NCBI GenBank assembly: GCA_964394405.1
Contig: CAYMVY010000002.1
Span: forward strand, 192,092-256,091
DNA: 64,000 nucleotides
Direction: 5' to 3'
Origin: an uncultured Gammaproteobacteria bacterium
GTDB taxonomy: Bacteria; Patescibacteriota; Patescibacteriia; Magasanikbacterales; UBA922
Below are positions 1,838 to 44,522 of the stretch, piece by piece. Both the position numbers and the translations under genes were made by a program. The notes beneath the pieces are model-generated. The model was not told where the DNA came from, ran no database searches, and saw nothing but the letters and a program-made list of their open reading frames with translations. Each line of letters opens with the position of its first letter. The first letter of the stretch is position 1.

Positions 1838-1873
1838 AATGAAAATTCAAAACTTAAAACTCAAAGCTCAAAA
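1838..1873. repeat. half-copy of the AT-rich 'caaaactcaaa' intergenic element (left arm only)
   Basis: aaaattcaaaacttaaaactcaaagctcaaaactaaata between the ftsE stop and ftsX start; matches the left arms of the copies at 18212, 20046, 33098, 35231, 44396. Confidence 0.6.
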
Positions 1874-2554
1874 CTAAATACGATACTTACCCTCACGTTC
1901 GTCTGAAACGATACGCCCATCATGCAAGACCACTACTCGCCTTCTCAGCTGATTTACAATTTCACGATTGTGGGTTACCAGCATGATTGTGGTCCCAAAT
2001 TCATTTATTTTTTTAAGAATTTCAATAATTTCCTGTGTATTGATTGAATCCAGGTTGCCGGTTGGCTCATCTGCAACCAAAATTTTTGGTCGATGTACTA
2101 GTGATCGAGCAATTGCCACACGCTGTTGTTCCCCTCCTGACAGCTGATGCGGATATCGGTCAAGTTTGTGTGACAATCCGACGATGTCTAGAACTCGGGG
2201 AACTACCTGCTTGATACGATTCTTTTTTTCTCCCGCAACTTCAAGCGCAAATGACACATTTTCATTCACCGTCTTTTTTGCCAATAATTTGAAATCCTGA
2301 AAAATAACTCCGATCTGACGTCGCAATAATGGAATATCATGTAGAGAAATTTTGGTAATATCCCATCCACCAATTTCTATTGAACCGCCTGTTGGACGCT
2401 CCTCTGCAATAAGCATTTTTACCAAGGTAGTTTTTCCAGTCCCACTTTGTCCCACTACAGACACAAATTCTCCTGGTTCAATATGAAGACTAACTTCATT
2501 CAAACCAATACTGTCATGGGAATACTGTTTACTAACATTTTTCAGTGTAATCAT
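1874..2554 (-). CDS. ftsE: cell division ATP-binding protein FtsE
   Basis: Walker [13 protein letters not shown] signature [14 protein letters not shown], Walker [13 protein letters not shown]; start moved to the internal Met [11 protein letters not shown] (the ORF-track start adds 24 non-conserved residues). Confidence 0.85.
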
Positions 2555-2676
2555 AGCCAAAATATACAAGTGGACTATAGTATAACATATTTGAGAAACA
2601 CGATACAATATACATAGAAGTCCCAAAATCTAAACTATTAAAAAACCGCCCTATCCAGGCGGTTTTTAGTTATTGG

Positions 2677-3546
2677 TTATTTCACGATCTCACTCAAAAG
2701 CTCGTGTTTTCCTTGCAAAATATGATGAATCGTGTGGAGTAGTGGATAAGAGCTAATGTCCCCCAATAATTTCACGACAGTCGGAGTCGAGACTACTCCC
2801 TCACATTGCATCGGAGTTTCACCTCGAGCAATTCGCCTCCCCTCCCCCCTATGACGTGAATCTTCGCTCATACCAGTCGCAATAAAATCTCCCATACCCG
2901 CGAGCGTATATGCTGTTTCATTTTTCCCTCCAAGTGCTACGATCTCTTTTCCCATTTCTTCTATCGCTTTTGTCGCATACCAGCCACGTGCATTACTCCC
3001 CATCCCCTGTTCATCGAGCATTCCCAAACCCATGGCGTATACATTTTTTAGAACCCCTGCAAGCACGGTACCATATACATCGTTTATGTGCTGTAATAAT
3101 ATTTTACTTCCTTCAAATAAGGATACAATAGTGCGGTAGGTCTCAATAGATTCACTTGCAATCGCACCAAAAGCATATTTTCCCGCGTCAATCTCTGCTG
3201 AAACCATGGGGCCTCCAAAAAAGGCAAATAGATGATCTGGTACCACATCAGCGACGATTTGATCAGCTGTTTTCATGGTTTTTTCTTCAAACCCTTTTGC
3301 AACTGAGACGAGAATTGCATGCGGTTCTAGATGTGGTTTGATGCGCTCCAGTGTCTGTCGTATGACCCATGAGTGGATACAGAGAAATACTACTTCGGCT
3401 CCGACGACACGTTCCTCGAGAGTTTGGGTTCCTGAAATCTTGGTCTGATCAATATCCCACCAATCCACACTTGCACCACTTTTCTGAATAGTTTTTCCAA
3501 TTGCACCTCCTATTTTCCCAGCTCCAATAACCAGTACTTTTGTCAT
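2677..3546 (-). CDS. gpsA: NAD(P)H-dependent glycerol-3-phosphate dehydrogenase
   Basis: N-terminal Rossmann fold VLVIGAGKIGGAIG; C-terminal GpsA-like blocks LAGVLKNVYAMGLGM and LAGMGDFIATGMSEDSRHR; start taken at MTKVLVIGAG. Confidence 0.7.
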   Translation of the reverse strand: MTKVLVIGAGKIGGAIGKTIQKSGASVDWWDIDQTKISGTQTLEERVVGAEVVFLCIHSWVIRQTLERIKPHLEPHAILVSVAKGFEEKTMKTADQIVADVVPDHLFAFFGGPMVSAEIDAGKYAFGAIASESIETYRTIVSLFEGSKILLQHINDVYGTVLAGVLKNVYAMGLGMLDEQGMGSNARGWYATKAIEEMGKEIVALGGKNETAYTLAGMGDFIATGMSEDSRHRGEGRRIARGETPMQCEGVVSTPTVVKLLGDISSYPLLHTIHHILQGKHELLSEIVK

Positions 3547-3622
3547 ATGTATATGTTTAGGTTTTCCCAAGTGTACTCATAATGATATACTGTTCAAAGA
3601 GAATTATCAACAGGTCAAGATA

Positions 3623-3898
3623 GTGTGGAATATGTATTCATTAGAAACTCTGTACAGACAAGCTGAAGAAAAAATCCACCTATTTGATGGGTTTGTAGAC
3701 GCTCACCGACTGAACGGGAGAATATTTGTAGATCATATAGGGTATAAATGTTCATCAACACAGCGCTTTCACGAGTTAAGACAACTTTTTGAAGCTCGTT
3801 CCGAATACATTTATCAATCAATTATTTCAGCACGTCGCATTGCAGTTATTAAACTTATCGACCCTATTCAGACTACGTGCGGTATGATTAATTTTTAG
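3623..3898 (+). CDS. hypothetical small protein
   Basis: 91-aa ORF in a 580-bp gap; upstream -10-like TATACT; no homology recognised. Confidence 0.3.
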   Translation: MWNMYSLETLYRQAEEKIHLFDGFVDAHRLNGRIFVDHIGYKCSSTQRFHELRQLFEARSEYIYQSIISARRIAVIKLIDPIQTTCGMINF

Positions 3899-3948
3899 AA
3901 TTATCAGACCAGAAGCCAGATGGAAGTCAGATAGATGGGTTTGATCAT

Positions 3949-4152
3949 ATGGAATTTTACCCTATAGAACAAACTGTTGAAACTATTGTTAATTATTTAA
4001 CCAATCAAAATGTCATAGTGACAAAAACTGTTCGACCCCATCATACCACCTATGATATTTCTCTTGAAAATAATTTCAAAGTACGGATTGAAGATTTTCC
4101 TTTAATTGAAAAAATAGTCAGGGAAGAAATTAAACTTATGCAAACAAAATAG
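3949..4152 (+). CDS. hypothetical small protein
   Basis: 67-aa ORF followed immediately by an intrinsic terminator hairpin. Confidence 0.35.
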   Translation: MEFYPIEQTVETIVNYLTNQNVIVTKTVRPHHTTYDISLENNFKVRIEDFPLIEKIVREEIKLMQTK

Positions 4153-4176
4153 CCCTAGTCCGGGCTATTTTAGTAT
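4151..4176 (+). terminator. intrinsic terminator
   Basis: TAGCCC-tagtcc-GGGCTA hairpin followed by TTTTAG. Confidence 0.5.
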
Positions 4177-4177
4177 G

Positions 4178-4250
4178 AGCCGATGTCGGGGATCGAACCC
4201 GAGACCTACAGTTTACGATACTGCCGCTCTACCAGCTGAGCTACATCGGC
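4178..4250 (-). tRNA. tRNA-Thr (anticodon CGU)
   Basis: reverse complement GCCGATGTAGCTCAGCTGGTAGAGCGGCAGTATCGTAAACTGTAGGTCTCGGGTTCGATCCCCGACATCGGCT folds as a canonical cloverleaf; anticodon loop ATCGTAA. Confidence 0.75.
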
Positions 4251-4321
4251 GTTTGGAAAGTACAAAATAAAAAGTCAAAATAAGTAGCTGTAATTTTAGC
4301 TAAAATACCCTCTATTGTCAA

Positions 4322-5452: not shown

Positions 5453-5457
5453 AATAA

Positions 5458-11424: not shown

Positions 11425-11467
11425 ATGGCAGTATTTTACGTTAAACTACCAAAAAAGTCTATTACTT

Positions 11468-11597
11468 TTACAACTTAAAACTCAAATGTCAAAACTCAAA
11501 ATTGTAACTAAAAATTCAAAACTAATATGCTAATTTAGTAAAGTTTTAACATTTAAGTTATAGTTTTACGTTTTGAGTTTTTAGCTTTGAGTTAACG
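11468..11597. repeat. AT-rich imperfect-palindrome intergenic element ('caaaactcaaa' family), full copy
   Basis: left arm aacttaaaactcaaatgtcaaaactcaaaattgtaactaaaaattcaaaact; right arm agttttaacatttaagttatagttttacgttttgagtttttagctttgagtt. Confidence 0.7.
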
Positions 11598-11612: not shown

Positions 11613-11641
11613 AAAACCCCCTGCATCGCAAGGGGTTTGTA
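11613..11641 (-). terminator. intrinsic terminator of the ribosomal protein operon
   Basis: on the minus strand AAACCCCTTGCGATGCAGGGGGTTTTTG, immediately 3' of rpsI. Confidence 0.6.
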
Positions 11642-12802: not shown

Positions 12803-13528
12803 TTATTCTTGACCACTTGCAGCAGTTTTTGACGCGGTACCAGACGCATCAAGCACAAGACTGTAGTGATCCATAAGAATTTTTGTTGCTCGCTCCACCG
12901 CTTCTCGAGGAGAAATCGTTCCATTCGTTTCAATTCTAATTACAAGTTTTTCGTAATCAGTTACATCTCCTACACGAGTATTCTCAACTGAATATCCCAC
13001 ATCCTTGATTGGTGAGTAAAATGAGTCCATAACAATGGTCCCCAAATCAAGATGCTTGCTTTCTTTTTCTGCAGCAGGAACGTATCCCAAACCTTTTCCA
13101 ATAATCACCTCAAGTGTAAATTCTTTTTTGTCACTCGTAATTGTTGCGATCTTGAGTTCAGGATTAATAATTTCAATATCAGCATTTTTATCAAAATCAC
13201 CTGCAGTCACTTCTCCTTTACCTGTTTTCTTGAGTGTTAATATCACCGGCTCGTCACTGTGAGAAATCACTGCGAGCTGCTTCAGATTGAGTGTAACTTC
13301 AATCACATCTTCGAGTACACCATCAATTGCAGAAAACTCGTGCTGGATTCCATCAATCTTTACTGCCTCGACAGCAGATCCCTCAATTGAAGAGAGAAGT
13401 ACACGTCGGAGTGAATTCCCCAGCGTGGTTCCGTATCCCTGATGACAAGGGGTAACGACCAACTCGCCGATATTTTTGTCACCGGTTTCTCGGAATTCGA
13501 TTGTTGATGGTAGTAAAATATAATCCAT
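12803..13528 (-). CDS. rpoA: DNA-directed RNA polymerase subunit alpha, N-terminal domain only (241 aa, no alpha-CTD)
   Basis: conserved alpha-NTD blocks (GYGTTLGNSLRRVLLSS, VTPCHQG); the ORF ends 24 nt before rplQ, leaving no room for a ~90-aa CTD. Confidence 0.85.
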   Translation of the reverse strand: MDYILLPSTIEFRETGDKNIGELVVTPCHQGYGTTLGNSLRRVLLSSIEGSAVEAVKIDGIQHEFSAIDGVLEDVIEVTLNLKQLAVISHSDEPVILTLKKTGKGEVTAGDFDKNADIEIINPELKIATITSDKKEFTLEVIIGKGLGYVPAAEKESKHLDLGTIVMDSFYSPIKDVGYSVENTRVGDVTDYEKLVIRIETNGTISPREAVERATKILMDHYSLVLDASGTASKTAASGQE

Positions 13529-16769: not shown

Positions 16770-16806
16770 ATATGTACTTTTCTTTTCTCTTTTTTACTTT
16801 TAACCT

Positions 16807-17250
16807 TTAACTTTTTACTTCCTCTCTCTCCCGATACACCCAAAATCGAAATAGTGCAAAATTCCACAGTACCATGCACGCAATTGAAGCTACTCGTACC
16901 AATAGATATGGAAGTCCAAGAATCTCGTTTCCCAAATGCATCGCACCTACTGAGAACGCATAGTTCCATGTTGCGAGTATCAGATATCGTACTAATTCTT
17001 TGTGTGAAGGAGCCTTGCTTCCAAACGACCATTTTTTATTGAGAGTAAAATTAAACCCAAGCACTATTGCCTGATTGATGATAACTGACACGGTCGGATT
17101 CAGCTGGATCCACTCAACAAACACAACAAGCAATGCGAGATCAATCGCAACACTTGAAACTCCGACAATTACATATTTTGCGAATTTTACTCGCTCTGCC
17201 CACGCCATTGCGATAACATGAAGAATTTTTTGTTTCATAGATGTAGGCAA
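16807..17250 (-). CDS. GtrA family polysaccharide-synthesis membrane protein
   Basis: 147 aa, 4 TM helices; YVIVGVSSVAIDLALLVVFVEW...LNKKWSF matches GtrA-like. Confidence 0.65.
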   Translation of the reverse strand: MPTSMKQKILHVIAMAWAERVKFAKYVIVGVSSVAIDLALLVVFVEWIQLNPTVSVIINQAIVLGFNFTLNKKWSFGSKAPSHKELVRYLILATWNYAFSVGAMHLGNEILGLPYLLVRVASIACMVLWNFALFRFWVYREREEVKS

Positions 17251-17359
17251 GTATACGCGATATGTACATTTTATTCAAACAAAATAAGACTACAGTCGAC
17301 AGCCTACTGACTACAGTAAGATTCAAGATCTACTGTCTATAGTCTGTTGTCTATAGTCT

Positions 17360-18211
17360 TTAATTCTGTGCAATACTTGTCTTTCTCAAATACTTCGTCT
17401 TGATAATCGAATACGTGAATACCATCAAAAATACAATCCCCTGGAACAATACAATCGCTCCACCGGTCGACACGTCGAGGTAATAACTCACATATGAACC
17501 TGCAATCGAACTAACCACACTCACCGTTGTCGCAATACCAAGCATTGTGGGGAAACGTTTGGTCAGGACAAACGCAGTTGCTCCTGGGGTAATAAGCATG
17601 GCAATAACGAGAATAATACCAACAGTCTGAAGTGATACGGTAATCGTAATTGCGAGGAGTACTAGTAAGAAGTAGTGAACCACTTTTGCATTGATGCCGA
17701 TTGACTGCATATGCGTAGCGTCAAAGCAGTACAGTAGCAGAGTGCGTCTGAATGCAATGATGATGAGCGCAACCAGCAGTGAAACCCCCATCGTGTACCA
17801 TGCGGCACTATCTGAAATTCCCAGCACGTATCCAAAGAGTACATGCATCAGATCGACTGAGGAGACTGTTCTAGAAATCAATACCAGACCAAGCGCAAAG
17901 AGCATCGTAAATACAATACCCATGACCGCATCCTCTTTGATCTTGGTGTTTGTTTTGATTCCACCAATGAGAAGCACTGCGAGCAAGGCGAATACAAATG
18001 CTCCAATACTAAAGGGAATTCCAATAATGTATGCAAGTACCACACCTGGTAATACTGCATGCGAAATTGCATCGCCCAACAGTGACCACCCTTTCAAAAT
18101 AAGAAAACATGATAATAGCGCGCATACTGCGCCTACAACCGAAGAAACCAAAATGGCTTTTACCATGAAGGGGTATTGGAGTGGGGTTGTAATTATGTCG
18201 AGGATATTCAT
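17360..18211 (-). CDS. metal ABC transporter permease (ABC-3 family, ZnuB/MntB-like)
   Basis: 8-9 TM helices, ABC-3 signature region; start moved to ATG at 18211 (MNILDIITTP) because the ORF-track TTG start lies inside the repeat element. Confidence 0.8.
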   Translation of the reverse strand: MNILDIITTPLQYPFMVKAILVSSVVGAVCALLSCFLILKGWSLLGDAISHAVLPGVVLAYIIGIPFSIGAFVFALLAVLLIGGIKTNTKIKEDAVMGIVFTMLFALGLVLISRTVSSVDLMHVLFGYVLGISDSAAWYTMGVSLLVALIIIAFRRTLLLYCFDATHMQSIGINAKVVHYFLLVLLAITITVSLQTVGIILVIAMLITPGATAFVLTKRFPTMLGIATTVSVVSSIAGSYVSYYLDVSTGGAIVLFQGIVFLMVFTYSIIKTKYLRKTSIAQN

Positions 18212-18335
18212 AGTGTATAAACTCAAAGCTTAAAACTCAAAACGTAAAACTGTAACTCAAATCTAGAAACTAATTCTTCTATTTAGTTTTAAATTTTTAG
18301 TTGTAATTTTAAGTTTTGACATTTGAGTTTTGATT
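18212..18335. repeat. AT-rich imperfect-palindrome intergenic element ('caaaactcaaa' family)
   Basis: taaactcaaagcttaaaactcaaaacgtaaaactgtaactcaaatc ... agttgtaattttaagttttgacatttgagttttga. Confidence 0.7.
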
Positions 18336-18355
18336 TAAAAAATTACAAAGTCAAT

Positions 18356-19105
18356 TTAGTGATTAAATTGAATATGATGCATCGCTCCATCATATGTTTT
18401 TTCTACTAACTCACGCGTAAACACTTCTTTGGTAGGGCCATACGCAATCACCGTTCTTTTTACCAATGCGATATAATCGCAATATTCTGAAAGCGAGGTG
18501 AGTTCATGTGTAGAAAGAATAATTGTTTTTCCTTCGGACTGGAGTGTGAGTAGTAATTGTGTAAGCGATCGTTCACTCTTGGCATCAACTCCGGCAAATG
18601 GCTCATCAAGTAACAGAATCTCGGCACCATGTGCGAGTGCTCGCGCTACGAATACACGTTTTTTTTGTCCGCCAGATAATTCTCCGATTTGTCGATCTTT
18701 GTATTCAGACATTCCGACTTTTTCAAGTGCACCCTCTACCATTTTTTTGTCTTTTTCAGTCGGGGTACGAAATATATTCTGTGATCCATATCTTCCCATC
18801 ATAACCACATCATACACAGACACTGGAAAATCCCAATCGACCAATTCATTTTGCGGTACATAGGCAACGAGCCCAAGCTTCTGTGCAGTTTTGGGATTTT
18901 TTCCACAGACTAACACGCTACCTTGGTCAGGCTTTACTAATCCCATAATCACTTTGAACAGAGTAGACTTCCCTGCCCCATTCATTCCGATAATTCCAGA
19001 AAAACTTTTATACGGAATTGAAATCGATGTATCACGAAGAGCGATATACTCATGATACTTCACTGATACATCTCTTATTTCTATTGCAAATTTATTTTCT
19101 GACAT
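18356..19105 (-). CDS. metal ABC transporter ATP-binding protein (ZnuC/MntA-like)
   Basis: Walker A GMNGAGKSTL, signature LSGGQKKRVFVARAL, Walker B ILLLDEPFAGVD. Confidence 0.85.
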   Translation of the reverse strand: MSENKFAIEIRDVSVKYHEYIALRDTSISIPYKSFSGIIGMNGAGKSTLFKVIMGLVKPDQGSVLVCGKNPKTAQKLGLVAYVPQNELVDWDFPVSVYDVVMMGRYGSQNIFRTPTEKDKKMVEGALEKVGMSEYKDRQIGELSGGQKKRVFVARALAHGAEILLLDEPFAGVDAKSERSLTQLLLTLQSEGKTIILSTHELTSLSEYCDYIALVKRTVIAYGPTKEVFTRELVEKTYDGAMHHIQFNH

Positions 19106-19112
19106 ACATACA

Positions 19113-20042
19113 TTATTCGCCTTTCAATCCTTTAATAATTGTCTCAACGGTGTGTTCAAGTAATTTCAAATATGTTGGTGCCGGTCCATCTGTAGCTGAT
19201 AATGAATCTACGTAGAGTACGCCTCCCATGCGGCTCCCTGATTCTCGTACTACTTCCTCTTGAATTCTCGGTTCAATCGTACTTTCACAAAATACTGCGG
19301 GAATCTTGTTTTTCTTTACTTCCTCTACCACATACGCAATTTGTTGTGGACTTCCTTGTGATTCATCATTGATTGCCCAGAGATATAATTCTTTCATTCC
19401 ATAATCTTTTGCAAGATAACTAAACGCTCCTTCACAGGTCGTCAAATATCTTTGACTCTCAGGAATTGTTGCAATAGATTCTCGCAATTTTGTATCGAGG
19501 GCTTGTATTTTTTCAGAATAGATTCGTGCTCGTTCGGCAAAATACTCACTATCACTAGGCGAAAGTTCGGCGAGTGCACTTCTAATATTTTCAACATAGG
19601 TAAGAGCTTGCGCAGGAGACATCCATGCGTGTGGATTTGGTTTATCCGCATATACACCTTCTGCGATAGGCACGATTTCAATTCCTTCACTAATCGTCAC
19701 ATGAGGAACGTCAGGAATACTGGTATAGAGTTTATTCGCCCATACTTCCAGATTCATTCCATTATCAAAAATAATATCAGCTTGTGATGCACGAATGAGG
19801 TCCCCTGGGGTTGGTTCATATCCATGAATTTCCACTCCGGGTTTGGTAAGTGAAATGGCTTCGATTCTATCTCCCCCGACTTCACGGACCATGTCTGAAA
19901 TAACGGTGAAGGTGCTAAGTACGGTAAGTTTGTCATTGACAATTTTTTCGCCCGCGACTCTTTTTTCGTGAAAGGCAAAAAATAAGATAGTCACTACAGC
20001 AAGCGCAATCGTAATAAGTAAAAATATTTTATTTTTGTTCAT
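19113..20042 (-). CDS. metal ABC transporter substrate-binding protein (cluster A-I, TroA/ZnuA/MntC-like)
   Basis: N-terminal signal/TM; conserved metal-ligand His contexts (EIHGYEPTP, PHAWMSP). Confidence 0.8.
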   Translation of the reverse strand: MNKNKIFLLITIALAVVTILFFAFHEKRVAGEKIVNDKLTVLSTFTVISDMVREVGGDRIEAISLTKPGVEIHGYEPTPGDLIRASQADIIFDNGMNLEVWANKLYTSIPDVPHVTISEGIEIVPIAEGVYADKPNPHAWMSPAQALTYVENIRSALAELSPSDSEYFAERARIYSEKIQALDTKLRESIATIPESQRYLTTCEGAFSYLAKDYGMKELYLWAINDESQGSPQQIAYVVEEVKKNKIPAVFCESTIEPRIQEEVVRESGSRMGGVLYVDSLSATDGPAPTYLKLLEHTVETIIKGLKGE

Positions 20043-20045
20043 AGT

Positions 20046-20180
20046 CTATTAACTCAAAGCTTAAAACTCAAAACGCAAAACGATAACTTAAGTCTAAAAA
20101 CTAATTATTATATTTAGTTTTTAATTTTTTAGTGTAGTTTTGAGTTTTGAAATTTGAGTTTTGAAATTTGAGTTTTGCGT
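20046..20180. repeat. AT-rich imperfect-palindrome intergenic element ('caaaactcaaa' family); right arm carries an internal tandem duplication
   Basis: aactcaaagcttaaaactcaaaacgcaaaacgataact ... agttttgagttttgaaatttgagttttgaaatttgagttttgcgtt. Confidence 0.7.
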
Positions 20181-20187
20181 TACACGT

Positions 20188-20595
20188 TTACACTTTCTTT
20201 ATCCTCTTCCCATGCGGATCCTTCTTCGGATTCCCCAAAAAATTTGCGAGACGTTTTATTACCTCATCTGAAAATGCATGTTCAAGTCTGTGCGCTTCGT
20301 CATGCACTTTTTCTGGGTCAATGCCCAGGATTGTGTGAAGAAAAAATTCGATGAGACGATGTTTGTAGGTGAGTTTTTCGGCAAGAGTTAATCCTTGCTT
20401 CGTAAGACTGATTCCACCACTTCGGTCGGTTTTTATTAACCGAGCGCGTTCGAGATCGTGAACGCGTTCTGAAACAGTCGATCTAGCGAGACCTAGATAG
20501 CGTGAAATGTCGATAATACGAACCTGTAGTCCCTGTTCATGGAGCGAATATACTGCTCGAACATAATCTTCCCTTGTAGGAGTTGTTTTTCGCAT
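20188..20595 (-). CDS. mntR: DtxR/MntR family metal-dependent transcriptional repressor
   Basis: N-terminal wHTH (ISRYLGLARSTVSERVHDLERARLI), then a metal-binding/dimerisation helix with His/Glu ligands; heads the metal ABC operon. Confidence 0.8.
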   Translation of the reverse strand: MRKTTPTREDYVRAVYSLHEQGLQVRIIDISRYLGLARSTVSERVHDLERARLIKTDRSGGISLTKQGLTLAEKLTYKHRLIEFFLHTILGIDPEKVHDEAHRLEHAFSDEVIKRLANFLGNPKKDPHGKRIKKV

Positions 20596-21022: not shown

Positions 21023-21127
21023 GTCGGTTCGCAAGTTTCGAACGCGTACAACCACATACGGGCCACTCTGGTTCCCGCATGACGGAAGTACGCGTTCGGA
21101 CTCTCTCAAAAACGATATTCATTATTC

Positions 21128-21157
21128 AAACGCCTTATGGGCGATTTTTTGTTTTTT
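21128..21157 (+). terminator. intrinsic terminator (copy 1 of a duplicated terminator)
   Basis: CGCC-ttatg-GGCG followed by ATTTTTTGTTTTTT. Confidence 0.6.
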
Positions 21158-21177
21158 AACCTATCCACCCCCTACTC

Positions 21178-21206
21178 TTGACAGCATATTCACTCTATGC
21201 TAGTAT
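21178..21206 (+). promoter_or_regulatory. sigma70-type promoter TTGACA-17-TAGTAT
   Basis: exact -35 consensus, 17-bp spacer, TAnnnT -10. Confidence 0.55.
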
Positions 21207-21292
21207 CTTTTGAAGTTTGGACTGGCTATGCATTCGCTTGCCATGCGACCAGACTTTTTCTGTGACACCTGCGACGAGACAGGAGAGTCCTC

Positions 21293-21478
21293 ATGAAGGA
21301 TCCCCCGATGACCAGCATCAAGGGAAACAATCCCAACATTCCGGCGATGACGAACGGCAACAACCTCGACCGGCCGATGGACGCCGGCACCAAGAAGAAG
21401 GGCACCGACCGCGACCGCTACGCGCGCGCGAAGAAGATCTCGATGAAGGGGCACGGCGGCTCGAAGCCGGCGGCCTGA
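21293..21478 (+). CDS. hypothetical small basic protein, GC-rich
   Basis: 61 aa; SD GGAGAG 5 nt upstream of the ATG; alternative overlapping 98-aa ORF 21217..21513 is low-complexity. Confidence 0.35.
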   Translation: MKDPPMTSIKGNNPNIPAMTNGNNLDRPMDAGTKKKGTDRDRYARAKKISMKGHGGSKPAA

Positions 21479-21517
21479 TCGAGCGCGGCGAGCGAGCTCC
21501 TACCAACCCCTAGACCA

Positions 21518-21677
21518 AAGGAGGTCCTGGTGCGGAAGTACGCAGTGTTCTAGATGGGCTCACACCGAGCCCTCCTCGGCACCTTCCTAGGGCGACAACG
21601 ACGCCGTCGCCCACAACCTCTCAACGGAGGAAAGATGAGGAAGTACGCAGTGTTCTAGATAGGCTCACACCGAGCCT
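21518..21677 (+). repeat. tandem direct repeat (2 x about 42 bp, period 105 bp), each unit = SD + 7-codon mini-ORF M-R-K-Y-A-V-F + stop + GGCTCACACCGAGCC hairpin
   Basis: AAGGAGGtcctgGTGCGGAAGTACGCAGTGTTCTAGATGGGCTCACACCGAGCC at 21518; GGAGGAAAGATGAGGAAGTACGCAGTGTTCTAGATAGGCTCACACCGAGCC at 21626; both in the same frame. Confidence 0.6.
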
Positions 21678-21817
21678 CCCACGCGCCCGCACGCATCCCC
21701 TACCACGACGCAACCAACGGTACGGGAAATGCTTCGGACGCACCTGGCGCCGCGCCCTCGCATGAACTTCGGTTCAAGCGACGGGTGCGGCGCCAGACAC
21801 TCAATTCAATCATTCTG

Positions 21818-21846
21818 AAAACGCCTTATGGGCGATTTTTTGTTTA
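21818..21846 (+). terminator. intrinsic terminator (copy 2, identical core to 21128..21157)
   Basis: AAACGCCTTATGGGCGATTTTTTGTTT. Confidence 0.6.
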
Positions 21847-24189: not shown

Positions 24190-26091
24190 TTATTCTACAA
24201 TTGCTTTGATGCGTCTGACTCCCGCACTTACTGCCTCTTCTTTTACTATCTTGAATTTTCCAATCACTCCAGTGTGTTCCACATGCGGGCCTCCGCAGAG
24301 TTCCCGACTGAATGTGGGAGCCGTAGCGTCTGCGACTGGCAACTCTTTTGGATCACCAACACTATACACTTTGACCATATCTTCGTATTTGTCACCAAAG
24401 AGTCCGATTGCTCCTCGTCTTTTTGCTTCCTCAATTGGAATTATTTCGTAGGTCACCGGATAATCACGCTCTATTGCTGAGTTTACCAAATCTTCCACTT
24501 GTTTGATTTGTTCTGATGTCATTTTTTCTCCATGCGCAAAATCAAACCGCAATCGCTCTGGCGTAATATTACTCCCCTTCTGTGTTGCGTGAGGACCTAA
24601 AATTTTTAGAACCGCAGCGTGCAGTAAATGCGTTGCGGTATGATATTTGAGACTCATTTCACTGTGATCAGCCAAGCCACCTTTGAATTTCTGCTCTGAC
24701 CCTGCTCGTGACAAATCCTGATGTTTTTTGAACTCTTCATTATATTCCGCTACATTAATTTCACTTCCTGATATTTGTTTTGCGATTTCGATGGTCAACT
24801 CTTTGGGGAAACCAAAATTCTGATACAGGTCAAACGCATCTTTGCCTGTAACTGTTTTCTTACTATTCAAAATTTTTTCTAACTCTTTGGTTCCTTTCTG
24901 TATTGTCGCTCCAAATTTCTTTTCCTCTTTTTCCATTTCACTTAATATCTTTTCTTTGTTGGTTTCTAAATCTGGATATGCATCTTTGTATACTTCAATA
25001 ATCGATTCCGCAATATCTTTGGTAAAATTCGTCGTAATTTCAAGATTACGCGCGTAGCGAATACTGCGACGAATGAGACGTCTCGTAAAATATCCCTGAT
25101 CTTTGTTGGAAGGCACGACTCCATCACCGATTAAAAATGTTGCTGCACGAAGATGGTCCATGATTACACGAAACGCATAAGTAATTTCGGTAGTCTCTCC
25201 ATATTTTTTTCCAGACACCCCCTCGAGTTTATTCCGCACGCCATCAAATAAATCAATTTTAAATACATCAGGATCACTGCTCCGTGCTGCTGCCATGCGC
25301 TCGAGTCCGCCACCAAAATCCACATTCTGCTGTTTCAATTTTTCAAAACCACTCTCAGTTTTCTGGTATTCCATGAATACATTGTTGCCGATTTCCATGA
25401 ATCGTCCGCAATCACAATTCACGTGACATGGTTCATTTTTCCACGCTGAATTTTCATGTAAACCCATCTCAGCACCAAAATCCCAGAACATCTCAGTGTC
25501 TGGTCCTCCTGGTTCTCCGACTGGCATATTTCCAGGGATCCCACTTCGGCTCCACCAATTTTTCTTTTCAGAATAATAAAAAATTCGCTCTCCAGATCTC
25601 ATTCCATCTTTCTCTGGATTTTCACCAATACTCGCATCAATCCCCCTGTCCGCAAATAATTTTTGCCACAATTCAGCAGATTCAGTATCACGTGGAATAC
25701 CAAGTTCTTCGTTTCCTTTGAAACAGGTGAAATACAAACGATTTGGATCAAGATCAATTTCACTAGTCAAAAATTCCCACATCCAGGAAATTTGTTCTTG
25801 CTTGAAATAATCGCCGAGTGACCAGTTGCCAAGCATTTCGAAGAGGGTGGTATGACGATTGTCCCCCACTTCCTCAATATCTTGTGATCGAAAACATTTT
25901 TGTGAATCAACAATCCTCGTTCCCTTGGGATGCTTTTGTCCCAACAAATACGGCACCATCGGCTGCATTCCTGAGCCAGTAAATAGTGTCGTCGGATCAT
26001 TTTCCGGTAATAACGAAGAAGACGGGATAATTACATGCCCTCTCGCTGCAAAAAAATCTAAGTATTTTTTTCTTAAATCTGTGGTAAGCAT
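24190..26091 (-). CDS. alaS: alanine--tRNA ligase, short form (catalytic plus editing domains; no C-Ala domain)
   Basis: N-terminal class II core MLTTDLRKKYLDFFAARGH...FTGSGMQPM; editing-domain HxxxH...CGGPHV; 633 aa versus about 870 typical. Confidence 0.85.
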   Translation of the reverse strand: MLTTDLRKKYLDFFAARGHVIIPSSSLLPENDPTTLFTGSGMQPMVPYLLGQKHPKGTRIVDSQKCFRSQDIEEVGDNRHTTLFEMLGNWSLGDYFKQEQISWMWEFLTSEIDLDPNRLYFTCFKGNEELGIPRDTESAELWQKLFADRGIDASIGENPEKDGMRSGERIFYYSEKKNWWSRSGIPGNMPVGEPGGPDTEMFWDFGAEMGLHENSAWKNEPCHVNCDCGRFMEIGNNVFMEYQKTESGFEKLKQQNVDFGGGLERMAAARSSDPDVFKIDLFDGVRNKLEGVSGKKYGETTEITYAFRVIMDHLRAATFLIGDGVVPSNKDQGYFTRRLIRRSIRYARNLEITTNFTKDIAESIIEVYKDAYPDLETNKEKILSEMEKEEKKFGATIQKGTKELEKILNSKKTVTGKDAFDLYQNFGFPKELTIEIAKQISGSEINVAEYNEEFKKHQDLSRAGSEQKFKGGLADHSEMSLKYHTATHLLHAAVLKILGPHATQKGSNITPERLRFDFAHGEKMTSEQIKQVEDLVNSAIERDYPVTYEIIPIEEAKRRGAIGLFGDKYEDMVKVYSVGDPKELPVADATAPTFSRELCGGPHVEHTGVIGKFKIVKEEAVSAGVRRIKAIVE

Positions 26092-29324: not shown

Positions 29325-29411
29325 TCAATAGAACACGGATGACACGGATTTAACGGATTGGAACGGATAAAATCCGTGTTAACCCGTGTGATCCGCTAAA
29401 CCCGTGTTCTA
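29325..29411. repeat. about 85-bp compound palindrome built from 4 + 4 tandem ACGGAT/ATCCGTGT units at about 10-bp periodicity
   Basis: atagaacACGGATgacACGGATttaACGGATtggaACGGATaaaATCCGTGTtaacCCGTGTgATCCGCtaaaCCCGTGTtctat. Confidence 0.55.
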
Positions 29412-29433
29412 TGAACTTTACTTAAGACACCTA

Positions 29434-29889: not shown

Positions 29890-29932
29890 ATTTCAAAGTA
29901 AAAAATAAAAAGGTAGAAGTCAAAAGAAATAC

Positions 29933-32000: not shown

Positions 32001-33074
32001 CTACTGTATAGCGCGTTCACAGATCTCGATGATATCCTCGGAGTCAGCGACTTTGAGCATTTCATGCATGGTATGCGCGAGTGATTTTGCAGCTTCAGGA
32101 TTTCCCAACAGTTCTTTGATCTGTTTTGCAATATAGAGACCGTCTGCAGTAGTCTCATTCACCAATATTGCCGCACCGCCACGTTCCAAAAATCGAACGT
32201 TTTCAACCTGATGGCCTGGTTTTGGAATAATAATACAAGGTTTCTCAAGCGCAGCCGCCTCGGTCAAGGTTCCAAATCCTCCGCGACACACAATAATGTC
32301 TGCAACAGCATACGCATCTTTCATCTCACTTCCCAAAAACTGATACACATGGTAGTGCGGAAATAATTCTTCTGTTTTTACGACCATTTGCTGCGGACGC
32401 TCTCGACCTGAGAGATGTATAATCTCAGCATGATCAATAATATGTGGCACTGCCTCTGCAATAAGCTGGTTTACCCGAAGTGAGCCTGTCCCCCCTCCGA
32501 GAACCAGGACTACAGGCAGCTTCCCAGAAAGTTTGAATATTTTTTTTGCCCGTGCCCTATTTCCCTCAAAAATTTCTCTGCGAACCGGATTACCCAGCCA
32601 GACGGTTTTTCGTTTTGGAAATTGTGTGGTGATTCGCGACAGTGACGTGGTAATGACCGTAGAGTATGGAACCATAAGCTTATTTGCGAGCCCAACCGCC
32701 ACATCCTGCTGATGCACCCAGGTCGGAATTCCCAATAGCCACGCAGCTGCGTGTACTGGAACAGACACAAATCCACCTGCAGAAATACACAGTGTAGGAT
32801 CTTCTCGTAACAAAATCCGTACTGCCTGAAAAAATCCGCGTATTATCCTCCCGATATCAAACAGATTGAGAAATGAAAAATATCTACGAAACTTTCCCGC
32901 AGAAATCGCTTGAAATGGAATACCATGCTCTGCGATTAATTCTACTTCAGGACCGTTTTTTGTTCCAATCCAAAAAAAACTCGCATATCGATCTTTCTCT
33001 CTAATCACATCCTTTATTGCTAGAAGCGGTGTTACCGGGCCAAGTGTTCCTCCTCCGGAGAATAGTATTTTCAT
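32001..33074 (-). CDS. murG: undecaprenyldiphospho-muramoylpentapeptide beta-N-acetylglucosaminyltransferase
   Basis: MKILFSGGGTLGPVTPLLAI N-terminal G-loop; GT28 C-terminal domain; follows ftsW. Confidence 0.85.
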   Translation of the reverse strand: MKILFSGGGTLGPVTPLLAIKDVIREKDRYASFFWIGTKNGPEVELIAEHGIPFQAISAGKFRRYFSFLNLFDIGRIIRGFFQAVRILLREDPTLCISAGGFVSVPVHAAAWLLGIPTWVHQQDVAVGLANKLMVPYSTVITTSLSRITTQFPKRKTVWLGNPVRREIFEGNRARAKKIFKLSGKLPVVLVLGGGTGSLRVNQLIAEAVPHIIDHAEIIHLSGRERPQQMVVKTEELFPHYHVYQFLGSEMKDAYAVADIIVCRGGFGTLTEAAALEKPCIIIPKPGHQVENVRFLERGGAAILVNETTADGLYIAKQIKELLGNPEAAKSLAHTMHEMLKVADSEDIIEICERAIQ

Positions 33075-33097
33075 AGTTTACTGTGTTTTCTAACTTA

Positions 33098-33228
33098 GTA
33101 ATAACTCAAAACGTAAAATTCAAAGCTCAAAACTGAAACTAAAAACTAAAATCTTTCAGCAAAAAGAAAGTAGGATTTTAAAATTTGAATTGTAGTTTTT
33201 AGTTTTGACATTTGAGTTTTGAGTTATT
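33098..33228. repeat. AT-rich imperfect-palindrome intergenic element ('caaaactcaaa' family); right arm overlaps the ftsW stop codon
   Basis: aactcaaaacgtaaaattcaaagctcaaaactgaaactaaaaact ... agtttttagttttgacatttgagttttgagtt. Confidence 0.7.
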
Positions 33229-34336
33229 TTGCATGTTTACTCACATTCACGACGACACCCAGTGCTGCCATACTAATCATAAGTGCAGTCCCCCCATGAC
33301 TTATAAAGGGAAGTGGCACTCCTGTCAATGGCAGCAACCCCAGCATTGCACCTATATTCATCAGTGTCTGAATACCAAACCAACTCATAATACCGAGCAC
33401 CAACAATCGTCCAAATTCATCAGAAGTATGTTCGGCAATTGAAAATCCACGGAAAAATAACAATGTATATGCAGCAATGCACGCTACCATAACTACAAAC
33501 CCCAATTCTTCTGCGGCTACAGCAAAAATACTGTCTGCATGGACTTCTGGTAAATATTGAAATTTTTGGCGTGAATGTCCCAAGCCTAATCCAAACCATC
33601 CACCCGTACCAATCGCCAAAAATGCCTGATTCATCTGATACCCCGTACCCTCTGGGTCAAGTTCTGGATGCAAGAACGTGACAAACCGATCTGCCCGATA
33701 TGGTGCCGCGTAAATCATCACGCCAAATGCGATGACCCCGAGCAAAAATAAAATCAATAAATGGGACAATTTTGCTCGTGCGAAAAAAAACATGAGTACA
33801 ATTAGCGATCCCAAAATAAACATACCTCCGGTATCTGGTTGTAGTGCTACCAGAACTAGCGGAATTGTTGCTACACATAGTATGGAGAGAAACCCGTGTA
33901 CTTGTCTGATCGCATTTCCTGCAGAAGAAAGTACTGCGGCTAGATATATGATAATCCCCAGTTTTGCTGCCTCAATCGGCTGAAAAGAAAAATTACCTAG
34001 TACAATCCAACTTTTTGCAAACGTATTATTATTTGATCCAATGCCTGGGATAAATACAAGAATGAGAAGCGCGACTGCAAGAATAAACACAGGTAATGCA
34101 TATTTTTTCCATACCGTATAATTGATCTTTGACATTACCAAAAACAATAAAATTCCTGGAAAAAAGCCAAAAAACAGCTGCCGCTTGATAAAAAAATACG
34201 CATCTGAAAACCGATCGAGACCTACCGCAACTCCTGCCGAACTAAGTACTAACAATCCAAACAAAATAATAGCGCCTGCGTAGCCAATAAATACATAATC
34301 AGCGCTATTGTGTGTAAGAGTCTGGGCTCGACGCAT
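33224..34336 (-). CDS. ftsW: SEDS family peptidoglycan glycosyltransferase FtsW (or RodA)
   Basis: 370 aa, 10 TM helices; position upstream of murG favours FtsW. Confidence 0.75.
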   Translation of the reverse strand: MRRAQTLTHNSADYVFIGYAGAIILFGLLVLSSAGVAVGLDRFSDAYFFIKRQLFFGFFPGILLFLVMSKINYTVWKKYALPVFILAVALLILVFIPGIGSNNNTFAKSWIVLGNFSFQPIEAAKLGIIIYLAAVLSSAGNAIRQVHGFLSILCVATIPLVLVALQPDTGGMFILGSLIVLMFFFARAKLSHLLILFLLGVIAFGVMIYAAPYRADRFVTFLHPELDPEGTGYQMNQAFLAIGTGGWFGLGLGHSRQKFQYLPEVHADSIFAVAAEELGFVVMVACIAAYTLLFFRGFSIAEHTSDEFGRLLVLGIMSWFGIQTLMNIGAMLGLLPLTGVPLPFISHGGTALMISMAALGVVVNVSKHAK

Positions 34337-35172: not shown

Positions 35173-35202
35173 AAAATCCCGCGAAAGCGGGGTTTTTGTT
35201 TA
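35173..35202 (+). terminator. intrinsic terminator of rpmA
   Basis: AAAATCCCGC-gaaa-GCGGGGTTTTTGTTT. Confidence 0.7.
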
Positions 35203-35230
35203 AACAATGCTCAAGTGATATACTACTCTC

Positions 35231-35336
35231 ACTAACTCAAAACTTAAAACTCAAAGTTCAAAACTACAACTAAAAACTAAAAAGTTTTAAGCTTTAAGTT
35301 ATAGTTTTACGTTTTGACATTTGACTTTTGAATTTA
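35231..35336. repeat. AT-rich imperfect-palindrome intergenic element ('caaaactcaaa' family)
   Basis: actaactcaaaacttaaaactcaaagttcaaaactacaactaaaaact ... aagttatagttttacgttttgacatttgacttttgaattt. Confidence 0.7.
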
Positions 35337-35341
35337 ATACC

Positions 35342-42951: not shown

Positions 42952-42968
42952 ATGAAGAAAAAAATAAA

Positions 42969-43226
42969 TTACGCACTTAAATTATAAATTTTCATGAGTT
43001 CTTTAATCGTCTGTGCTTTATTTTCCTTAAGTTTGTGTTCGAGGCAGTGATCCAGATGTCCGAGAAGTAAGTCACGCTTACACGATCGGAGTAGCCCCAT
43101 GACACTATCGATCTGTTGAATGATATCCGGGCAATATTCATCTTTTTCTACCATTGAAACTACCTTCCCGAGAGTGCCCGCTGCTTGCTTTGACAGCTTG
43201 AGTGCTTTAGCATTAGTAACATGCAT
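42969..43226 (-). CDS. csoR: CsoR/RcnR family metal-sensing transcriptional repressor
   Basis: 85 aa; conserved Cys...His...Cys ([17 protein letters not shown]) spacing typical of CsoR. Confidence 0.7.
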
Positions 43227-43247
43227 AGTATATGCGTTAAGAGTACT

Positions 43248-43264
43248 AACCTATAGTATAGGTT
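43248..43264. promoter_or_regulatory. 17-bp palindrome AACCTATAGTATAGGTT upstream of csoR: candidate CsoR operator overlapping a -10-like TATAGT
   Basis: perfect dyad 22 nt upstream of the csoR ATG. Confidence 0.4.
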
Positions 43265-43319
43265 ATAGGTTACTTGAGCGCAAGAGGTGACGGTGGATAA
43301 GTTTAAAAAATCCAAATAA

Positions 43320-43375
43320 AATGATAAATTTGTATTTTATCCGTGTAAACCCGTGTTTACCCGTACAACCCGCGT
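43320..43375. repeat. direct repeats of CCGTGT-like units at 10-bp phase (ATCCGTGTaaACCCGTGTttACCCGTACaaCCCGCGTACC)
   Basis: same unit, phasing and ATCCGTGT-AACCCGTGT core as the array at 29325..29411. Confidence 0.45.
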
Positions 43376-43399
43376 ACCATTAAACAATTGAAAAACAAA

Positions 43400-43436
43400 A
43401 AAGCCACAGTTTTTGCAAGACCGTGGCTTTTTATTT
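43400..43436. terminator. bidirectional intrinsic terminator
   Basis: AAAAAGCCACAG-loop-CTGTGGCTTTTTATTTTTG. Confidence 0.55.
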
Positions 43437-43447
43437 TTGAATAACTA

Positions 43448-43663
43448 TTACATCTTTGGCATACTGCAAGCTTTGCAGTCCTTCTTGTGTGTAAAGAGAA
43501 GAACGAGAGCTGAAAGACCAACCAAAACGTATACTACGCGAGAAAATGCTGCATCCATGCCGCCAAATAATTGGCCAACATCCCAGCCCCAGATTCCAAC
43601 GAGCAACCAATTCAACCCGCCGACTACGACGAGAAGAAAAGCTATCATATGTACTGCTTTCAT
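43448..43663 (-). CDS. DUF378 family small membrane protein
   Basis: 71 aa, 2 TM; GGLNWLLVGIWGWD motif. Confidence 0.55.
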   Translation of the reverse strand: MKAVHMIAFLLVVVGGLNWLLVGIWGWDVGQLFGGMDAAFSRVVYVLVGLSALVLLFTHKKDCKACSMPKM

Positions 43664-43857
43664 GTGTGTTCACCTCCTGTCATATGTGAAAATATTGACT
43701 GAGTTAACGACACGCCATTAGTATAGACCTTTTTTACCCTTTAGACAAAGAAGTTATCCACTGGAAGAAAGCCCGCCTGCAACGCTTTGCGTAGCAATGC
43801 GGGCAGGTAAAAGGTTAAAAGGAAAAAGTAAAAAGAATAAATTCTAAATACAAGTTC

Positions 43858-44391
43858 TTACTTTAGACCAAATATTTTATATACCATCGATACCATCGGA
43901 TCGGCATCAGGGCCGTAGACCATTCCCCCACCGAGTGCTCCGGTGAGTGTGATAGAAATCAATCCAGCGAGAGCACCAACAACAATTACCGGACGAAGAG
44001 TAATGAATTTTGAAATCCGTTCTACTATTTTCCAGATCACATACGTCCATTCACGCTTGCTCACCAATCGAGTCACTGATCTCGTGGTTGCAATTACCGC
44101 ATGAGCCCCGGCCAATACCGTGAAGATTATTTTGGTAATCGTTGCTAGGAGTTCATGCATGGCAAGCGCAGTACCTGGCTCGATATTCTCTCCTCCACGA
44201 GCTTCACCTGTAGTTGCCGCAACAATCACTGCAAGCGCCCCAAAAAATAAAAGTACACGCTTGGCAAAAATCCATTTCGGATCAGTCCACGTAATTCGGA
44301 ACGGGAGTAATTCCAGCACTGCATATAACGTAAGTAATCCGATTGGAAAATGGACGATGACAGGATGGAGTTGGGCGAGGAGGGTTTCCAT
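43858..44391 (-). CDS. DUF2231-like membrane protein
   Basis: LHPVIVHFPIGLL N-terminal motif; 4-5 TM helices. Confidence 0.5.
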   Translation of the reverse strand: METLLAQLHPVIVHFPIGLLTLYAVLELLPFRITWTDPKWIFAKRVLLFFGALAVIVAATTGEARGGENIEPGTALAMHELLATITKIIFTVLAGAHAVIATTRSVTRLVSKREWTYVIWKIVERISKFITLRPVIVVGALAGLISITLTGALGGGMVYGPDADPMVSMVYKIFGLK

Positions 44392-44395
44392 AAGA

Positions 44396-44522
44396 TAAAA
44401 TTCAAAACTTAAAATTCAAAGCTCAAAACTGAAACTAAAAACTTAAAACTTTTTATTCTCATATTAATTAATTTTTAGATTTGAGTTATAGTTTTACGTT
44501 TTGAGATTTAAGTTTTGAGTTT
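44396..44522. repeat. AT-rich imperfect-palindrome intergenic element ('caaaactcaaa' family)
   Basis: aaattcaaaacttaaaattcaaagctcaaaactgaaactaaaaact ... agttatagttttacgttttgagatttaagttttgagtt. Confidence 0.7.

Follow-up and report, generated by a model that had tools for sequence, protein, structure and literature searches.

Palindromic repeats lodged between bacterial genes include the ERIC and Correia elements, transposable elements of the miniature inverted-repeat type (MITEs) that are co-transcribed with their neighbors and cut by RNase E or RNase III (PMC10969869). The Correia hairpin in the transcript is an RNase III substrate, and the element can sit between a promoter and its gene (PMC10969869). 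REP sequences have halves that are short G+C-rich palindromes with a GTAG or CGTC tag, mobilized by a RAYT transposase (PMC3733652 and PMC3116915). Tandem arrays form another group of gene-adjacent repeats. Among the long simple-sequence repeats of bacteria, those with heptamer units are the commonest (Mrazek 2007, as summarized in PMC4679880), and TAACTGA heptamer arrays stand just before start codons in Beggiatoaceae, Cyanobacteria, and Bacteroidetes, in spacers without a canonical ribosome-binding site (MacGregor 2015, PMC4679880). These TAACTGA arrays comprise 169 direct sets versus one indirect set (PMC4679880). Here, we analyzed a 64,000-nt stretch of DNA, called the window below (contig CAYMVY010000002.1 of assembly GCA_964394405.1, positions 192,092 to 256,091 of the forward strand), deposited as an uncultured Gammaproteobacteria bacterium and placed by GTDB in Patescibacteriota, Magasanikbacterales, UBA922. 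This window holds six full copies and one half copy of an AT-rich hairpin repeat built from heptamers. The copies are dispersed, occur in either orientation, are bounded by TA, are confined to short spacers, are absent from distant relatives, and are swapped in strains that are about 98% identical. We consider it reasonably probable that, in this Patescibacteria genome, they represent an intergenic repeat of the MITE-like foldback type that is non-autonomous, spread between loci, and is tolerated because of its folding. Patescibacteria have genomes of about 1 Mb with very little non-coding DNA, and we know of almost no work on the control of gene expression in this group.

A hairpin family of inverted heptamer arrays

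The full copies measure 105-138 nt and have a G+C content of 19-23%. A covariance model, as proposed in a first-pass annotation of the window, was built from a nine-sequence alignment of copies (mean column identity 72%), and the window was scanned with filters off. All six full copies were recovered at 105.6-125.9 bits. The count of six full copies and one half copy in that annotation was therefore borne out, with the half copy reaching only 20.7 bits. The scan found no further copy of the family in the window, and none was found in the 10 kb to its right. Every pairwise local alignment scored above 200 of 200 dinucleotide shuffles (z of 10.7-24.3 between full copies, 5.8-12.0 where the half copy was involved), so the likeness of the copies is not explained by AT-richness. 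This shuffle control had been named beforehand as a result that could refute the family, and it failed to do so. The motif AAACTCAAAR, with at most one mismatch, occurred 68 times versus 20.0 ± 4.9 expected from shuffles, and a repeat search returned one direct-repeat family plus many inverted pairs. The copies are not assembly artifacts: an independent Logan assembly was 100% identical over 32 kb, and orthologous copies with few substitutions are present in other strains. Searching the whole window against Rfam at the gathering threshold, only three tRNAs passed and no family matched the copies. A permissive Rfam search of 17900-20500, which includes two copies, gave only chance-level matches (E above 1). 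The copies have no coding capacity; their sole open reading frame (ORF) overlap consists of spurious TTG extensions at 18226 and 35321, which agrees with the earlier remark that TTG starts of two ORFs fall inside the elements.

Each copy consists of two inverted arrays, with about seven degenerate heptamers apiece, around a variable loop of 10-35 nt. The arms span 50-60 nt and are degenerate tandem arrays with a period of 7, also readable as 14, holding 4.6-8.1 units per arm at 65-82% matches by Tandem Repeats Finder (TRF). Autocorrelation of the arms was 0.55-0.63 at lag 7, with a further peak at lag 14, versus about 0.2 at lags 3-4. The unit consensus is AAAACTY / RAGTTTT; the left arm reads AAYTCAA AACTTAA AAYTCAA AGCTCAA AACTGAA ACTAAAA, and the right arm is its imperfect complement. 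Complementarity amounts to 73-76% between the two arms of one copy and reaches 92% between arms of different copies. The termini of the six window copies and of a Saccharibacteria copy (L108) follow TA-(A)AYTCAAA...TTTGARTT-TA. Direct repeats longer than TA are absent at the copy ends, and this TA may be a duplicated target or simply the end of the repeat.

The first-pass annotation had assigned a single orientation to all copies, and this did not hold. Pairwise alignment and inverted-pair matches placed four full copies one way (group I) and two inverted (group II, Table 1). The left arm of copy 18212 (18216-18275) and the right arm of copy 44396 (44466-44525) show 92% complementarity, and alignment scores favored the reverse orientation between groups (78 vs 56 and 75 vs 58). 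Within group II, 127 nt of copies 18212 and 20046 align at 87% identity. When orientation is taken with respect to the downstream gene, the full copies split three to three, and the half copy joins the first set. An RNA function specific to one orientation was rejected on the basis of these two groups.

Read as RNA, either strand of the six full copies is predicted to form one long AU-rich stem of -20 to -36 kcal/mol, folding better than shuffles in every case (z of -2.4 to -6.4). The long intercistronic hairpins proposed earlier thus stand, as a structural prediction, for the four full copies inside operons and for copy 35231 as a 5' untranslated region (UTR), but not for copy 11468, which probably lies outside any mRNA. 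In the mRNA-sense fold of copy 33098, the ftsW stop codon lies in the stem base at ftsW/murG; in that of copy 44396, the MFS stop codon pairs with bases overlapping the A of the DUF2231 AUG. In six of six copies, the better fold is that of the strand antisense to the flanking genes. No consistent bias in base composition was found behind this difference, and the conserved wobble columns are inherited. Consensus scans detected no convincing promoter inside the elements, and the real -10 box of the genome, TATACT, lies outside them. An identity as intrinsic terminators was also rejected, since the terminator scanner reported genuine terminators at 11618-11635 and 35178-35191 and none of the elements.

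Pfam supported the gene identities given in the first-pass annotation, naming the flanking pairs as ftsE/ftsX, rpsI/Polysacc_synt flippase, ABC ATPase/ABC-3 permease, DtxR-like/ZnuA, ftsW/murG, and MFS/DUF2231. The reported overlap of copy 33098 with the ftsW stop codon was likewise correct. The placement of all copies between minus-strand genes was accurate for most of them but not for copy 35231, whose neighbors are on the plus strand, and copy 11468 is cut off from its neighbors by a terminator and a promoter-like site. Because it follows the rpsI terminator and lies upstream of the promoter-like site of the flippase gene, copy 11468 may not be transcribed at all. At copy 35231, the rpmA terminator is followed by an extended -10 box and then by the element up to the ATG, which makes this copy a predicted 5' UTR.

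Table 1. Hairpin copies and related features of the window, with the content of the same junctions in sister strains. Full-copy positions are the spans of the covariance model, except that copy 20046 is extended from 20045-20171.
Feature	Positions	Orientation or strand	Bits	Setting	Same junction in sister strains
Half copy	1842-1876	aligns best with group I	20.7	ftsE/ftsX; one arm, 4.9 AAAACTC heptamers (TRF period 7, 81% matches); occupies the whole 36-nt spacer from ftsE stop (1874-1876) to ftsX start (1835-1837)	full element of 9-mer TTCTAATTA family
Copy 11468	11466-11597	group I	113.7	rpsI/flippase; rpsI terminator (11618-11635) on one side, promoter-like site (11461-11433) on the other; 44 nt holding this TAGACT-17-TAAAAT site separate it from flippase ATG (11424)	DRR736432 (L206): heptamer family, 6 substitutions; DRR736411: 9-mer TTCTAATTA family
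rpsI intrinsic terminator	11618-11640	minus		context, not element; parts rpsI from copy 11468	
Copy 18212	18214-18340	group II (inverted)	125.9	between ABC ATPase stop (18356-18358) and ABC-3 permease ATG (18209-18211)	L205: heptamer family, 3 substitutions (ortholog retained in DRR736411)
Copy 20046	20045-20182	group II	115.1	between DtxR/MntR-like stop (20188-20190) and ZnuA-type binding-protein ATG (20040-20042); lengthened to 20182 by an extra 14-nt unit pair in right arm	DRR736411: different; about 30 nt visible at contig end, one TTCTAATTA-like unit beside GC-rich palindrome
Copy 33098	33097-33229	group I	113	ftsW/murG; contains ftsW stop (33224-33226); end 25 nt before murG ATG (33072-33074)	DRR736411, DRR736418, SRR8893623: unrelated 85-nt TAAAGTC palindrome
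Copy 35231	35228-35338	group I, short loop	105.6	between plus-strand rpmA and plus-strand gene with ATG 35342; begins about 7 nt after extended -10 box TGaTATACT (35216-35224), ends 4-8 nt before ATG	9-mer TTCTAATTA family
rpmA intrinsic terminator	35178-35197	plus		context, not element; just upstream of promoter and copy 35231	
Copy 44396	44393-44525	group I	109.9	between MFS stop (44526-44528) and DUF2231 ATG (44389-44391)	
Tandem-unit palindrome	17287-17359			GACTACAGT-type units	
Tandem-unit palindrome	29325-29414			ACGGAT units	
9-mer array	49812-49840			TTAGAATAA x3.2, after gene end; same family as sister-strain palindromes	

Swapped families, empty spacers, and related repeats

Contigs of sister strains from other samples (DRR736411, DRR736418, DRR736432, and SRR8893623) were compared with the window at six junctions. 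The species also occurs in samples SRR12404947 and DRR736425. Beside the six junctions, the flanking genes of the sister strains are 98-99% identical to those of the window. A palindrome of tandem units was found at all six junctions in both the window and the sister strains, mostly of a different family (Table 1). The swapped segment starts at the stop codon, a few codons earlier, or at the transcription start, and runs exactly to the start codon. FtsW ends in ...NVSKHAK in the window versus ...NVSKQH in the other strains, and the ftsE stop codon also differs between the window and the sister strain, one having TAG and the other TAA. The 9-mer elements of the sister strain are mutually similar across four loci. 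Short-read contigs of the sister strains end inside elements, as expected for dispersed repeats. Import of long divergent DNA was rejected as the cause of the swaps, since the flanks at swapped junctions are as similar (98-99%) as those at the retained copy.

Where the heptamer family is retained, the substitutions can be placed on the predicted fold. Between orthologs of copy 11468, five of six substitutions fall at unpaired positions, and the sixth turns U.G into C-G; with about 30% of its positions unpaired, the chance of such a placement is approximately 0.01 by simple arithmetic. Between orthologs of copy 18212, one substitution keeps its pair and two open the outer end. The extended -10 box upstream of copy 35231 is conserved in four relatives (L002, L208, L209, and L211), each of which has a different UTR hairpin. 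Altogether, in four of five lineages a long hairpin stretches from the predicted transcription start of the gene downstream of rpmA to its ATG, and the hairpin sequence is different every time.

In more distant relatives, the spacers are short. Where MurG is 74-82% identical, the ftsW/murG spacer measures 12 nt in L208 (MurG 82%), 61 nt in L209, and 48 nt in L211. The L209 spacer carries a one-orientation 9-mer array just before the murG ATG, and no hairpin was found in the 48 nt of L211. For the transport operon, a metagenome scan with the ZnuA protein gave L124 as the nearest relative (binding protein 75% identical), which is too distant to settle the question of target duplication. It has the same operon of mntR, binding protein, ATPase, and permease, with an mntR/binding-protein spacer of 32 nt, an ATPase/permease spacer of 4 nt, and no element. 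These short spacers indicate that the elements are additions in this lineage and not ancestral parts of the operons.

The heptamer family is one of several tandem-unit palindrome families in the same genome; neither this nor the heptamer make-up of the arms had been noted in the first-pass annotation. Among 29 spacers with lengths of 60-330 nt, approximately half gave much stronger folds than shuffles, some of them being ordinary G+C-rich terminators. A relative of the ACGGAT element at 29325-29414 lies 10 kb beyond the window (L212 6320-6440) in an inside-out arrangement. The unit family of the 9-mer array at 49812-49840 forms full palindromes in DRR736411, clearly at three junctions, and a direct array before murG of L209. 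At the junction between a 151-amino-acid (aa) gene and mnmA, three lineages were compared (window 29325-29414, L209 13660-13815, and L211 13571-13715). All three have the outer stem TAAAGTTCATAGAACAC...GTGTTCTATTGATTTTA, and the units of the inner stem differ by lineage yet pair (ACGGAT, CCAGGAT/CCAGAT, and ACGAAT). This observation suggests that the inner part of such hairpins turns over in place, with the arms staying complementary. The heptamer family is best read as belonging to a wider class of tandem-unit palindromes with fast turnover.

Shorter repeats were also observed in the spacers. Arrays of period 7 or 9 lie at 838-874, 16791-16820, 29890-29930, 43805-43835, 17335-17359, and 29335-29368; several read CTTTTNA on the gene strand, the array at 29890-29930 fills an entire 43-nt stop-to-start spacer, and one adjoins a tRNA at 760-830. 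A G+C-rich palindromic repeat, GGGGGTTATAGCCYGGCCGGGC, has three spacer copies (55844-55861, 56517-56534, and, inverted, 46868-46885), and relatives have similar GCCTGCCGGCAGGC palindromes in spacers or where contigs end (L205 start, L211 around 4020).

To survey other bacteria, one genome per species was scanned with a 22-nt pattern from the arm. At least 119 loci matched, in phyla including filamentous Cyanobacteria, Bacteroidota, Acidobacteriota, Abditibacteriaceae, Chloroflexota, Verrucomicrobiota, and Patescibacteria. Plain arrays accounted for 94 of the 119 matches listed. Clean palindromes numbered 20 among the same listed matches, every one of them in the mirror arrangement, in which the AAAACTC arm follows the GTTTTGA arm; they were found in Abditibacteriota, Acidobacteriota, Cyanobacteria, and Chloroflexota, and many fill a stop-to-start spacer (e.g., L017, L018, L050, and L086). 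The two mirror forms fall to different lineages (20 to 0 among these palindromes). Full-length matches in the arrangement of the window were obtained twice in another Patescibacteria genome (L063, 59-67 bits, copies that were not in the training set of the covariance model), in Saccharibacteria (L108, 81 bits), and in Vicinamibacterales (L102). Falkowbacteria and a further Patescibacteria genome (L113 and L021) have partial copies directly against start codons. Separately, the hairpins of Abditibacteriaceae, Acidobacteriota, and Cyanobacteria (L017, L018, L050, L079, L086, L073 5065-5162, L119, and others) were seen to run from a stop codon to the next ribosome-binding site or start. Carriage by phages was rejected, as none of 17 viral contigs with the heptamer pattern held a full element at a convincing score.

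Origin of the copies and competing explanations

Four roles had been put forward in the first-pass annotation, and that of a MITE-like mobile repeat is the best supported. The copies are dispersed, non-coding, and bi-oriented, have inverted repeats as long as their arms and TA ends, are missing from the spacers of relatives, and break assemblies. With 105-138 nt they lie within the 50-500 bp of non-coding MITEs, the 50-60-nt arms provide terminal inverted repeats, and 6.5 copies in 64 kb, together with the empty spacers in L208 and L124, match the dispersal and presence/absence pattern of such elements. Under this reading, the copies would have spread between loci through a trans-acting transposase or gene conversion. 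Local reshaping by replication slippage (unit gain or loss) and intrastrand template switching would keep the arms complementary. Copies inside operons or in a 5' UTR would be transcribed and fold into a hairpin with roughly 40-50 base pairs, bringing the upstream stop codon (or 5' end) beside the next start codon. Once folded, an insertion should be nearly harmless in a genome with hardly any Shine-Dalgarno (SD) use; of about 76 ORFs, very few had a Shine-Dalgarno-like motif no farther than 15 nt from the start. Downstream initiation would then probably depend on unfolding by the upstream ribosome, and the folded copy may offer a substrate to a double-stranded RNase. A role in RNA processing or translational coupling may follow from this fold, and any benefit to the cell would be secondary to the persistence of the element itself.

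Several observations weigh against a mobile origin with tolerance through folding. TA is itself palindromic and could be just the end of the inverted repeat, so that no target-site duplication is provable. No transposase with matching ends was found: Pfam gave no transposase match among the 30 window proteins scanned, and nothing was found in the 10 kb beyond, these together being 74 kb of a contig of about 257 kb. Replaced alleles were found, but no closely related empty one. Occupancy of the same six junctions in the sister strains is unlike random insertion and fits a functional need or an element-targeted replacement equally well. The alignment of nine copies contained no compensatory changes, with both sides changed in 0 of 26 pairs. 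Finally, since copy 11468 is probably outside any mRNA, the RNA-level part of the proposal is not applicable to every copy.

The occupancy of these junctions raises the question of whether the hairpins are instead selected cis-acting RNA elements, such as translational coupling devices, RNase III/RNase E sites, or 5'-terminal mRNA stabilizers, in which only the fold matters. We regard this as a doubtful though serious alternative. Junction occupancy is conserved while the sequence is swapped in about 98%-identical strains, the gene downstream of rpmA has differing long hairpins in four of five lineages, substitutions avoid paired positions, and pairing is kept at the mnmA junction although the inner units differ. 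Stop and start codons stand at the stem base, and with few SD sites, access to the start region should be sensitive to structure. However, a hairpin is not required at these places, since relatives have spacers of 4-61 nt without one at ftsW/murG and in the ABC operon. The flanking genes have no function in common, the copies lie both ways, copy 11468 lies between a terminator and a promoter-like site, and template-switch repair can keep palindromes self-complementary without selection. Contact with both neighboring genes was rejected as a sign of function, because in a compact genome with spacers this short, whatever inserts must abut both. An attenuator role, another of the four candidates, has little in its favor: the AU-rich stems lack the G+C-rich base and U-run of the real terminators of this genome. 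A wider version of selection for the fold would place the copies in a cross-phylum class of tandem-unit hairpins in stop-to-start spacers, in two mirror forms (A/C-rich arm first in Patescibacteria and G/T-rich arm first in the 20 clean palindromes of Abditibacteriota, Acidobacteriota, Cyanobacteria, and Chloroflexota), kept for ribosome-dependent coupling or double-stranded RNase processing and exchanged at fixed junctions by a dedicated cassette-replacement mechanism. Such a mechanism would explain the different families at the same six sites in 98%-identical strains, but we consider this proposal unlikely.

Mobility might also be dispensed with entirely if each copy arose in place by heptamer slippage and inverted duplication, the likeness between copies coming from a favored unit. 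One-orientation heptamer arrays are indeed common here and elsewhere (the half copy, 29890-29930, L021, and L056; 94 of the 119 matches listed), the prevalence of heptamers among bacterial simple-sequence repeats (Mrazek 2007, as summarized in PMC4679880) agrees with this origin, and unit turnover in place is visible at the mnmA junction. Against it, copies share non-periodic detail and loop sequence, as in the 87% identity of 18212 and 20046 over 127 nt, and two arm types are distinguishable, with 92% conservation from locus to locus. Similarity across four loci is seen in the 9-mer family of the sister strain as well, and a full swap of 85-150 nt within 98%-identical flanks is too fast for stepwise local change, leaving an in-place origin improbable. 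The regular 7-nt spacing of a conserved unit could alternatively reflect DNA sites for one protein, either nucleoid-associated or a regulator recognizing GTTTTGA-type heptads, which corresponds to the shared regulatory scaffold suggested in the first-pass annotation. The same heptamer occurs in gene-adjacent arrays in many phyla, and a precedent for heptad arrays as binding platforms is provided by the TTTTGAT repeats of the cholera toxin promoter. Yet operon-internal positions between functionally unrelated housekeeping genes account for most copies, both orientations occur, the sister strains carry unrelated 7-mer or 9-mer palindromes at the same sites, no candidate binding protein is encoded beside the copies, and the palindromic arrangement would have no role. 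The scaffold was therefore not supported, and we hold a protein-binding origin to be quite improbable. Integron-type attC sites separating gene cassettes resemble the copies only superficially, as imperfect palindromes of about 130 bp between co-oriented genes. The attC repeats of Vibrio cholerae measure 123-126 bp. The ends of the window copies do not fit the RYYYAAC / GTTRRRY core sites, their orientation is mixed, and no integrase was found among the window proteins scanned. Their neighbors are core genes in conserved order (ftsE-ftsX, ftsW-murG, and the ribosomal protein operon), an order kept in relatives without the element, and an attC identity deserves next to no credence.

Host genome and comparison with known systems

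The gene content of the window fits Patescibacteria, with a type IV coupling protein beside murG, a short alanyl-tRNA synthetase (AlaRS), and a one-strand gene order. Named MurG homologues are from Candidatus Parcubacteria and Magasanikbacteria at about 55-61% identity. At 10-40 nt before start codons the TATACT -10 box occurs repeatedly, in many cases with a TG upstream of it, which suggests very short or absent leaders. Other features of the window were recorded in passing. RpoA (12803-13528) has 241 aa without a Pfam match for the C-terminal domain, AlaRS (24190-26091) has 633 aa, and both have the same size in relatives. A 60% G+C insert at 21160-21810 in the 41% G+C genome is bracketed by near-identical terminator-like repeats (21119-21154 and 21810-21845). 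It has its own TTGACA...TAGTAT promoter, an SD-led 61-aa ORF (21294-21479), and two SD-led 7-aa ORFs, (V/M)RKYAVF, inside a 48-nt direct repeat (21531-21578 and 21636-21683). Pfam and Rfam gave no matches for this insert, which may be a foreign small-peptide locus. A low-G+C island (32-34%) at 50000-56000 with a GmrSD-type restriction endonuclease gene (53030-54778) is probably horizontally acquired defense DNA. Adjacent paralogous genes at 46885-47544 and 47555-48310 form repeats 700 nt apart that are 75-84% identical.

Hairpin-forming repeats fill a large share of the longer spacers of the window and thereby bear on operon expression, strain typing, and assembly. The pattern of conserved sites with swapped sequences offers a system for testing fold selection against targeted replacement and template-switch repair. 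Gene-bridging heptamer hairpins in unrelated phyla also tie to the old question of STRR and TAACTGA repeats upstream of start codons in SD-poor genomes. Our literature search did not find a description of such repeats in Patescibacteria (candidate phyla radiation, CPR).

Among described elements, the consensus of ERIC is not composed of AT-rich heptamer arrays and has no sequence relationship with the window family. ERIC also differs in its host phylum and in having arms of unique sequence instead of tandem units. To our knowledge, family-for-family replacement at one site is not a described ERIC feature. The resemblance lies in size (ERIC/IRU, about 127 bp), in the imperfect palindrome spanning the whole element, and in the location within operons and UTRs in either orientation (PMC10969869). 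ERIC occupancy and copy number vary between strains, with RNase-dependent effects on flanking mRNA (PMC10969869). The Correia element (CREE/NEMIS, Neisseria) is similarly a non-coding, gene-adjacent MITE of about 100-150 bp with TA ends (PMC10969869). Its terminal repeats of 26 bp enclose a unique core that contains an IHF site and promoter boxes, whereas the arms of the window family are nearly the whole element, consist of heptamer repeats, and contain no detected internal promoter. REP/REPIN sequences are likewise dispersed, intergenic, non-autonomous hairpins of two inverted halves that lie inside operons and break assemblies. Identity with them was rejected: the copies have 19-23% G+C and no end tag, and no Y1 transposase or RAYT was found among the scanned window proteins. 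Foldback (FB) transposons share long inverted arms that are arrays of short units, the element snapping back into a hairpin. FB transposons are eukaryotic and of kilobase size. The BrickBuilt MITE of Porphyromonas is alike in its short tandem subrepeats and differs in having 22-23-bp bricks between separate terminal repeats. Like the STRR and TAACTGA heptamer repeats, the window family consists of intergenic, head-to-tail 7-nt units typically ending a few bases before a start codon and is patchy across distant phyla. Unlike these simple one-orientation arrays without a higher-order unit, it joins two inverted degenerate arrays into a hairpin, and the composite appears to be copied between loci as one element. 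The family is thus ERIC/Correia-like in behavior and heptamer-repeat-like in composition, with an unusual population pattern.

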